Positions 20,475-20,839 of a stretch of 64,000 nt of DNA are shown piece by piece. A model generated the notes under the pieces. It was not told where the DNA came from, made no database searches, and was given only the letters and a program-made list of their open reading frames with translations. The stretch's first letter is position 1. Each line of letters opens with the position of its first letter. The DNA is from Escherichia coli O157:H7 (GTDB lineage Bacteria > Pseudomonadota > Gammaproteobacteria > Enterobacterales > Enterobacteriaceae), in the NCBI RefSeq assembly GCF_013167455.1, contig NZ_CP038328.1. The stretch is one strand, 5' to 3'. The translations under genes and the position numbers were made by a program.

Positions 20475-20839
20475 ACCATAGACAACATGAATATTAATGT
20501 TACTATCTGGTTGAGACTGTTGATAAAACGTAATAAGGAATGCTCTGTTCCTGCAACTGAACAGGCGTGAAACGCTATCCAACAGGATGGATACCGTTTT
20601 GTCAGCCAGTTTTATAGATCACACTTATGAGTATGCGTGTTTCATTTACGGCCAGGAATGCTGATGATGACAACATTACTACCCGTTTTCACTAAGCCTT
20701 CCCCGTTGGCGCTCAATGCTCTGCGCGCTGGTCGTATTTGTCGTTTCCTTCTTATCCCGGATGGAAGAATCCGCTGAACGTCGTTCGGCGGCAGTTGTAA
20801 CACGCGTCGTTTGCTTACAGGGATTATGGCGGGTCGATT

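Follow-up and report, generated by a model that had tools for sequence, protein, structure and literature searches.

The small open reading frame between yhiJ and yhiI of Escherichia coli is yhiY, a translated first cistron followed by Rho-dependent termination and a putative regulatory uORF of yhiI-rbbA-yhhJ

Immediately upstream of yhiI, the first large gene of the yhiI-rbbA-yhhJ operon, Escherichia coli O157:H7 carries a small open reading frame (ORF) that raises the question of whether it is a gene at all and, if so, what it does for the operon that follows. The initial annotation of the window (the whole 64,000-nt stretch of contig NZ_CP038328.1 that was analyzed) described a 39-codon ORF opening with an ATG at 20658, preceded by AGGA and ending about 60 bp before yhiI, and proposed on admittedly weak evidence that it is either a leader peptide of yhiI-rbbA-yhhJ or the remnant of a decayed gene. 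Such an ORF is indeed present on the plus strand, with the translation MLMMTTLLPVFTKPSPLALNALRAGRICRFLLIPDGRIR and a TGA at 20775-20777, and a gap of 62 nt separates it from the yhiI start at 20840. The caution was justified as far as the ORF alone is concerned. The spacer between the yhiJ stop (20474) and yhiI is 365 nt long and contains several further short ORFs on both strands, and shuffling it produced an ATG ORF of at least 37 amino acids on the plus strand in 35-47% of shuffles. As the length of the ORF is within chance, the case for a gene rests on outside evidence and not on the ORF itself.

Of 5426 complete E. coli genomes, 5412 were matched by a 501-nt query spanning the site, with the O157:H7 strains being 100% identical, and the matched O157:H7 feature is annotated "yhiY: protein YhiY". 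The coding sequence annotated in O157:H7 PV15-279 (WP_001296785.1) corresponds to window positions 20664-20777, and in K-12 MG1655 the gene is b4790 (YP_010051203.1, at 3630665-3630778); the amino acid sequence of YhiY is identical in the O157:H7 window and K-12. The 39-codon ORF matched Pfam family PF23514 (YhiY) with 102.8 bits against a cut-off of 27 (E = 7e-30), its residues 3-39 aligning with profile positions 1-37 of 37, and with this full-length match and a location on the same strand directly upstream of yhiI it is a member of the YhiY family. No NCBIfam model matched the peptide, and a protein search with the frame extended upstream to a GTG (46 amino acids) returned only yhiY-type proteins of 25-69 amino acids, all from Escherichia and Shigella.

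The translation of this gene has been documented in K-12, and the O157 window encodes the same peptide. Weaver, Mohammad, Buskirk and Storz (2019) reported yhiY as ORF9, and the ribosome-profiling start peaks in K-12 identify the second of three AUGs as its start. The protein itself was identified in a proteomics study of 2025, in which top-down, DIA and PRM mass spectrometry all registered YhiY and its abundance came to roughly 1,000-3,000 copies per cell. The frame and stop given in the initial annotation were therefore right, and ribosome profiling, which it had suggested as a check, does find the ORF translated, but the start at 20658 was not upheld. The RefSeq annotation, the extent of the Pfam profile, the profiling data and the spacing of the AGGA at 20654-20657 (0 nt to the ATG at 20658, 6 nt to 20664 and 9 nt to 20667) all place the start at the second in-frame ATG, two codons downstream at 20664. 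Taken together, these data show that the ORF is yhiY, an annotated and translated gene and the first cistron of the yhiY-yhiI-rbbA-yhhJ mRNA, which is already known by name, is represented in RefSeq and Pfam, and has been seen by ribosome profiling and mass spectrometry. The features of the locus are collected in Table 1.

Table 1. Coordinates of yhiY, its leader elements and neighboring features in the window
Feature	Position	Strand	Basis or remark
Sigma-70 promoter of yhiY-yhiI-rbbA-yhhJ	20479-20506	+	Consensus scan; sole site in spacer
Approximate transcription start site (TSS)	20513	+	7 nt past -10; 151 nt upstream of yhiY start codon
~103-nt insertion, imperfect palindrome	20507-20609	+	K-12/O157 haplotype only; between -10 and conserved leader block
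Nearly invariant block	20632-20677	+	46 nt; helix 1 5' strand, Shine-Dalgarno, three ATGs, first codons
Predicted long-range helix 1	20633-20644 with 20796-20807 (span 20633-20807)	+	RNAalifold; encloses whole uORF
Predicted helix 2	20650-20655 with 20728-20733	+	RNAalifold; yhiY Shine-Dalgarno with segment inside ORF
AGGA Shine-Dalgarno of yhiY	20654-20657	+	Sequence; GGA invariant across genera
39-codon ORF of the initial annotation	20658-20777	+	Same frame as yhiY, two codons longer at 5' end
yhiY CDS	20664-20777	+	37 aa, MMTTLLPVFTKPSPLALNALRAGRICRFLLIPDGRIR, stop TGA; RefSeq annotation, Pfam match
Candidate Rho loading (rut) region	20665-20754	+	Composition; C-rich, G-poor ORF body
Hairpin P3 (UUUCC.UCU / GGA.GGAAG)	20744-20767	+	Alignment fold
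Hairpin P4 (CCGCUGAAC-GUC-GUUCGGCGG)	20771-20791	+	yhiY stop 20775-20777 in 5' arm
Published Term-seq RNA 3' ends	20775 (K-12 3630667), 20797 (K-12 3630645)	+	Coordinate mapping
yhiI (HlyD-family membrane-fusion protein)	20840-21907	+	First large operon gene; rbbA next at 21904

Two other potential starts in the region were considered. An overlapping ORF at 20627-20695 (MSMRVSF...) drew attention as it spans the nearly invariant block and was set aside: no ribosome-profiling evidence is reported for it, and the yhiY frame is the only one in which the ACA to ACC change of Klebsiella is synonymous. The ATG at 20826, just upstream of yhiI, is replaced by ACG in the Citrobacter freundii group and Salmonella and is for that reason unlikely to be a start codon, judging from the alignment. 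The start region of yhiI also contains a direct repeat of GATTATGG at 20822-20829 and 20836-20843. In at least one assembly, NZ_CM173464.1, homology to the window begins only at 20680, within yhiY, and the feature is annotated as "hypothetical protein", which suggests that the start of yhiY was disrupted there by a rearrangement or an insertion.

To place yhiY within its transcript, we examined the spacer for promoters. The single sigma-70 site consists of the -35 hexamer TAGACA (20479-20484), a 16-nt spacer and the TG-extended -10 element TACTAT (20501-20506), and it is identical to the promoter TAGACA-16-TACTAT assigned to yhiI-rbbA-yhhJ by RpoD genomic SELEX (Shimada et al.). The motif ATAGACA-N16/17-TGnTA(G/C)TAT occurs upstream of yhiI in Escherichia, Citrobacter, Pseudocitrobacter, Salmonella, Klebsiella and Raoultella, and no second copy of it was found in the window. 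The forward primer of a published yhiI 5'UTR-lacZ fusion begins with GAGACTGTTGATAAAACG, corresponding to the window from 20513 onward, and as the fusion probably begins at the mapped TSS, transcription is placed at about 20513. The transcript therefore begins upstream of 20658 and not downstream of it, the case that the initial annotation had regarded as fatal to its proposal. With promoter and TSS both upstream, yhiY lies within the operon 5' untranslated region (UTR), as is characteristic of the upstream ORFs (uORFs) of Rho-dependent attenuators.

The distance between promoter and yhiY depends on the haplotype. In the K-12/O157 haplotype an imperfect palindrome of ~103 nt, with the ends CTGGTTGAGAC...GTCAGCCAG, extends the 5' UTR from ~47 to 151 nt, and the fold of 20513-20613 predicts that the mRNA begins with a long hairpin. 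Of 5426 E. coli genomes, 4282 have the insertion, and the counts for the yhiJ-side flank and for yhiJ are identical. It is missing from UTI89-type strains (1129 genomes), Escherichia albertii, Escherichia whittamii and the other genera; without it the -10 element lies ~54 nt before the yhiY ATG. A multi-copy mobile repeat was ruled out, as there is one copy per genome. Upstream of yhiJ, the paralogue yhiL (window 16917-18590) is an intact 557-amino acid DUF4049-type ORF here and in O157:H7, and K-12 yhiL (b4660) is annotated as a pseudogene.

The fate of transcripts that enter this leader can be read from published Term-seq data, which we mapped onto the window with the relation 20840 + (3630602 - K-12 coordinate). 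Adams et al. (PMC7815308) recorded a 3' end at 3630645, supported by 27,479 Term-seq reads, that lies 43 nt before yhiI and 20 nt past the yhiY stop. In the absence of bicyclomycin, coverage was 762 upstream of this site and 101 downstream; with the drug the corresponding values were 792 and 351. The site received a Rho score of 3.34 and was marked as a significant Rho termination region, its intrinsic-terminator score of 2.14 fell short of the threshold (3), and its entry bears the tag "uORF" (PMC7815308). A second 3' end, at 3630667, was seen in another growth condition and coincides with the first base of the stop codon (PMC7815308). The same study found a fusion of the yhiI 5' UTR and ORF to lacZ to be more than 2-fold up in a rhoR66S strain and listed yhiY-yhiI among the uORFs that might control such termination (PMC7815308). 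Our own scan of 20300-21000 revealed no terminator-like site that would indicate an intrinsic terminator. These data show that Rho terminates most transcripts just beyond yhiY. Overproduction of CspD, described as an attenuator of termination or anti-termination factor, was reported to raise "the operon associated with yhiY", and earlier work in E. coli and Salmonella had already described short RNAs from the yhiI leader. The first report of such leader fragments is said to be that of Raghavan et al. in 2011. We found no published yhiY mutants in the literature.

The composition of yhiY fits a candidate Rho loading site. The ratio of C to G reaches 2.0 in 60-nt windows of the ORF body (20665-20724), compared with 0.3-0.6 in early yhiI, and in 12 loci from six genera the uORF ratio is 1.1-1.9 (at least 1.4 in 10 of the 12), compared with 0.73-0.95 for yhiI.

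To assess how far the uORF is conserved, we fetched 80 loci with YhiI as the query and compared 25 Enterobacteriaceae loci, namely the window and 24 fetched loci from Escherichia, Citrobacter, Pseudocitrobacter, Salmonella diarizonae, Klebsiella and Raoultella. All 25 have a uORF with a common Shine-Dalgarno and start (GGCCAGGA..GCTGATGATGAC), within the shared motif GGCCAGGA-N2-GCTG-ATGATGAC, and the encoded N terminus is MMTT(L/F)(L/I/V) throughout. The frame is kept open across these genera, which answers the other doubt raised in the initial annotation, that it might not be conserved. Beyond the N terminus, of which only ~6-9 residues are shared across genera, the peptides diverge in length: 37 amino acids in Escherichia, 45 in Citrobacter amalonaticus, Pseudocitrobacter and Salmonella, and 46 in the C. 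freundii group, where a new TAG stop follows 4 nt further on. In the last of these, translation crosses the conserved block TTCCTTCT(C/T)ATCCCGGATGGAA in another frame (..SFSSRMESPAE*), the nucleotides being nearly unchanged. In Escherichia, Citrobacter, Pseudocitrobacter and Salmonella the uORF nevertheless stops 59-64 nt before yhiI, within the conserved hairpin P4; at P4 the stop is reached in three different frames. In Klebsiella and Raoultella, which do not have P3 and P4, the uORF is 78-98 amino acids long and overlaps yhiI by 67-131 nt. Some E. coli assemblies (P0003 and P0006; window 20716-20847) contain frameshifted yhiY variants of 59-63 amino acids that enter the +1 frame and stop at a TAA overlapping the yhiI start (ATGGATAA), resembling the overlapping uORF of Klebsiella and Raoultella.

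Outside the Enterobacteriaceae, the yhiI locus of Hafnia alvei (L025, ~2797-2949) has a non-homologous 50-codon uORF (MKTSIVG..., MKTSIVGVTPISIDVCHF...) preceded by a degenerate version of the block that is conserved upstream of yhiY (GTTTGTTTCATTCA), and thus a uORF at this operon extends beyond the Enterobacteriaceae with a different peptide. The start motif is absent from the yhiI loci of Providencia, Proteus and Morganella.

As a measure of selection within Escherichia, dN/dS is 0.26-0.67 for yhiY compared with 0.007-0.033 for yhiI, and dN is 6-15 times that of yhiI; the yhiY values are below one and somewhat lower than those of the two other frames. The 23 variable sites in Escherichia yhiY are distributed over the three codon positions as 7, 6 and 10, and 18 of them fall in codons 14-26, with the first 34 nt never varying. 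A frame open for at least 37 codons from the fixed AUG is found in seven representative lineages, through sequence that cannot be aligned. The shuffling P value is 0.33-0.58 for each lineage and ~1e-3 to 1e-2 jointly if the lineages are independent, so the openness of the frame is modestly beyond chance when the lineages are taken jointly.

The strongest conservation is found at the nucleotide level. The nearly invariant block at the start of yhiY consists of invariant columns in an alignment of 18 sequences from six genera and is conserved far above the neighboring coding sequence from Escherichia to Raoultella; at its position the sequence GCGTGTTTCATTT(A/C) is present in 24 of 24 related Enterobacteriaceae loci and is degenerate in Hafnia. 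The 30 nt upstream of the yhiY start (20632-20663, UAUGCGUGUUUCAUUUACGGCCAGGAAUGCUG) are essentially invariant in the six genera. This invariance exceeds what a Shine-Dalgarno needs, with helix 1 possibly explaining part of it, and the segment may be a putative binding site for a protein or sRNA. The conserved GGA motifs in the yhiY Shine-Dalgarno and in ACAGGGAUUA before yhiI presumably resemble CsrA sites. A scan of 19500-22000 against Rfam gave no match at E <= 1, hence no known riboswitch, leader or sRNA family is represented there.

Folding an alignment of 14 leaders with RNAalifold gave four elements, helix 1, helix 2, P3 and P4. Helix 1 has 98.9% of its alignment cells paired, with 9 of 13 pairs never varying. 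In 26 loci its 3' strand lies 33-34 nt before the yhiI ATG, and every change in the 9-bp core of that strand keeps or adds a pair (A or G opposite U); such changes are compatible with pairing and argue weakly for it. Helix 2, with 94.9% of cells paired and changes on one side only, is a prediction to which the alignment lends weak support. The nucleotides of P3 are kept even where the reading frame differs, and P3 by itself is no more stable than its shuffles (z = -0.36). P4 by itself has a predicted dG of -13.2 kcal/mol (z = -3.1), and among the 14 sequences two of its pairs are changed on both sides and three on one side. The stop codon lies within the conserved P4 in Escherichia, Citrobacter, Pseudocitrobacter and Salmonella. 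The published 3' ends lie 8 nt past P3 and 6 nt past P4. Exonucleases trim Rho-terminated RNA back to a hairpin, and by analogy the placement of the ends would fit this pattern. In C. amalonaticus (L005, 2930-2961) the P4 equivalent is followed by GGTTTTGT and is terminator-like, unlike in E. coli, Citrobacter youngae and Salmonella, and a P4-type hairpin may be a weak intrinsic terminator in some species.

For the structure as a whole, 95.4% of cells are paired compared with 37-43% when the partners are slid, a contrast that is inflated because the structure was derived from that same alignment. Compensatory change is limited to six pairs, 157 of 500 shuffles did at least as well, and the fold of the whole leader is not unusually stable (z = -1.3 to -1.5). 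The proposed leader structure is thus a model compatible with the data in which covariation is weak. A single-sequence fold of the UTI89 leader joined the ORF body to the yhiI ribosome-binding site by a long-range pairing, which was unsupported by the alignment fold and was set aside.

How might yhiY serve the operon? The suggestion in the initial annotation that it is a leader peptide for yhiI-rbbA-yhhJ holds in that the small ORF sits inside the 5' UTR of the operon; the regulatory role is plausible. On balance, and with modest confidence, we lean towards yhiY acting in cis as a putative regulatory uORF coupled to Rho-dependent attenuation. In such a mechanism, transcription would start at about 20513, and the C-rich yhiY RNA would load Rho when it is uncovered by ribosomes, with the predicted pairing of the yhiY Shine-Dalgarno to a segment inside the ORF (helix 2) and the long-range helix limiting translation. 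Rho would then stop transcription just past the ORF and leave short leader RNAs with 3' ends protected by P3 or P4. Translation of yhiY close behind RNA polymerase would instead cover the Rho loading region with ribosomes, a ribosome at the stop codon in the 5' arm of P4 would keep P4 from forming, and more polymerases would read into yhiI-rbbA-yhhJ. The act and position of translation would then outweigh the peptide made. A fixed start, a stop fixed in three frames, a free middle of the peptide and a conserved composition are what a position-dependent regulatory uORF predicts. The Klebsiella and Raoultella loci, without P3 and P4 and with a uORF that overlaps yhiI, imply that the regulatory logic is not identical everywhere.

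One observation that speaks against the cis reading is that YhiY accumulates measurably, which a pure by-product peptide would not need to do. Its detection by three mass-spectrometry workflows at ~1,000-3,000 copies per cell would suit a functional small protein that acts mainly in trans and is merely co-transcribed, for example to modulate the YhiI-RbbA-YhhJ exporter or another partner. Such a role would also agree with the strict preservation of frame and length within Escherichia, the conservation of the N- and C-terminal segments, the dN/dS below one and somewhat below that of the other two frames, and the finding that in codons 3-9 most third-position changes across genera are synonymous. 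However, the peptide differs in length outside Escherichia (45, 46 or 78-98 amino acids) and shares only the first six to nine residues, the C. freundii group uses a different frame across the conserved 3' nucleotide block, and dN far exceeds that of yhiI. Moreover, none of the three codon positions varies within the first 34 nt, a pattern that points to constraint on the nucleotides, and no transmembrane helix is predicted in any of the proteins newly identified by Weaver et al. A mainly trans-acting YhiY is, in our judgment, quite unlikely.

We rate as slightly less probable again the idea that the leader RNA itself is functional, as a structured 5' UTR, a protein or sRNA site or the source of a 5'-UTR-derived sRNA, and that translation of the ORF is incidental. 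The frequency of equally long ORFs in shuffled spacers allows for this, as do a conservation that is strongest at the nucleotide level and reaches ~30 nt upstream of the start codon, the retention of P3 regardless of frame, and abundant stable leader fragments. Yet both the Shine-Dalgarno and the AUG are invariant, the frame is open for at least 37 codons in seven lineages with the stop held at P4 in three frames, ribosomes initiate at yhiY and its product accumulates, and the leader matches no Rfam family. The other proposal of the initial annotation, a remnant of a decayed larger gene, found no support beyond the fact that the spacer borders a variable island (yhiJ/yhiL, in 79% of genomes). 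The only family matched is YhiY itself, the protein search returned nothing but yhiY-type proteins of Escherichia and Shigella, the uORF start is shared by 25 of 25 loci, and the ORF and promoter are conserved in genera and strains without yhiJ and yhiL. We consider decay from a larger gene extremely improbable.

The mechanism favored here, a cis-acting uORF, has parallels in known systems. In tnaC-tnaAB a ribosome held at the leader stop codon blocks an adjacent Rho site, and in pyrBI the leader ORF extends into the hairpin of the attenuator, so that a closely coupled ribosome prevents termination. The architecture of yhiY echoes both, with its stop in the 5' arm of P4 and 20 nt before the Rho-dependent 3' end, but yhiY has no Trp codon or boxA-like feature, and there is no strong U tract past P4 in E. 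coli. By analogy, the mechanism would most resemble the Rho-linked uORF class of mdtU-mdtJI and toiL-topAI. Spermidine is reportedly the signal for mdtU-mdtJI, and Rho is said to be involved at toiL-topAI. Like yhiY, mdtU is a small translated uORF in an exporter operon's leader, and a Rho-dependent 3' end lies just downstream of it (Adams et al. 2021, PMC7815308). Regulation that depends on the uORF has been reported for mdtU, and the C-terminal region of its peptide is conserved in at least 17 genera (PMC7815308), whereas the C-terminal frame of yhiY is not conserved across genera. The likeness to toiL, a uORF upstream of an E. coli gene that senses ribosome-targeting antibiotics, is one of architecture only, and yhiI is not mentioned in that work (PMC12121999). 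A classical amino acid-sensing attenuator of the trpL or hisL type was ruled out, as there is no run of regulatory codons and no U tract: the commonest residues of the 37-amino acid YhiY, Leu (7) and Arg (5), are scattered, no single amino acid forms a run, and a G+C-rich hairpin followed by a U tract is not found between the leader and yhiI in E. coli, P4 fitting that description only in C. amalonaticus.

A bolder version of the cis-acting uORF would make yhiY the putative sensor of an attenuator conserved across the Enterobacteriaceae that sets Rho read-through into the YhiI-RbbA-YhhJ exporter. Here the invariant 46-nt start region, encoding MMTT(L/F), and the stop within a hairpin would link ribosome behavior to read-through, and the trigger would be slowing or stalling of the ribosome by a specific metabolite or ribosome-targeting compound. 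The conserved MMTT(L/F) N terminus may instead reflect constraint at the nucleotide level, and we offer the sensor only tentatively, as an unlikely reading if a little less so than a protein acting mainly in trans.

The genes yhiI-rbbA-yhhJ specify an exporter of the ABC type that includes a membrane-fusion protein, and in E. coli expression of this operon is limited by Rho-dependent termination right after yhiY. The pattern seen across genera, with a fixed start, a stop within a hairpin, a free middle and a C-rich body, provides concrete mutations to target. If translation of yhiY controls this termination, a condition that changes that translation would reveal when the pump is needed, and if yhiY does act as a sensor, an inducing signal would be gained for the poorly understood YhiI-RbbA-YhhJ pump.
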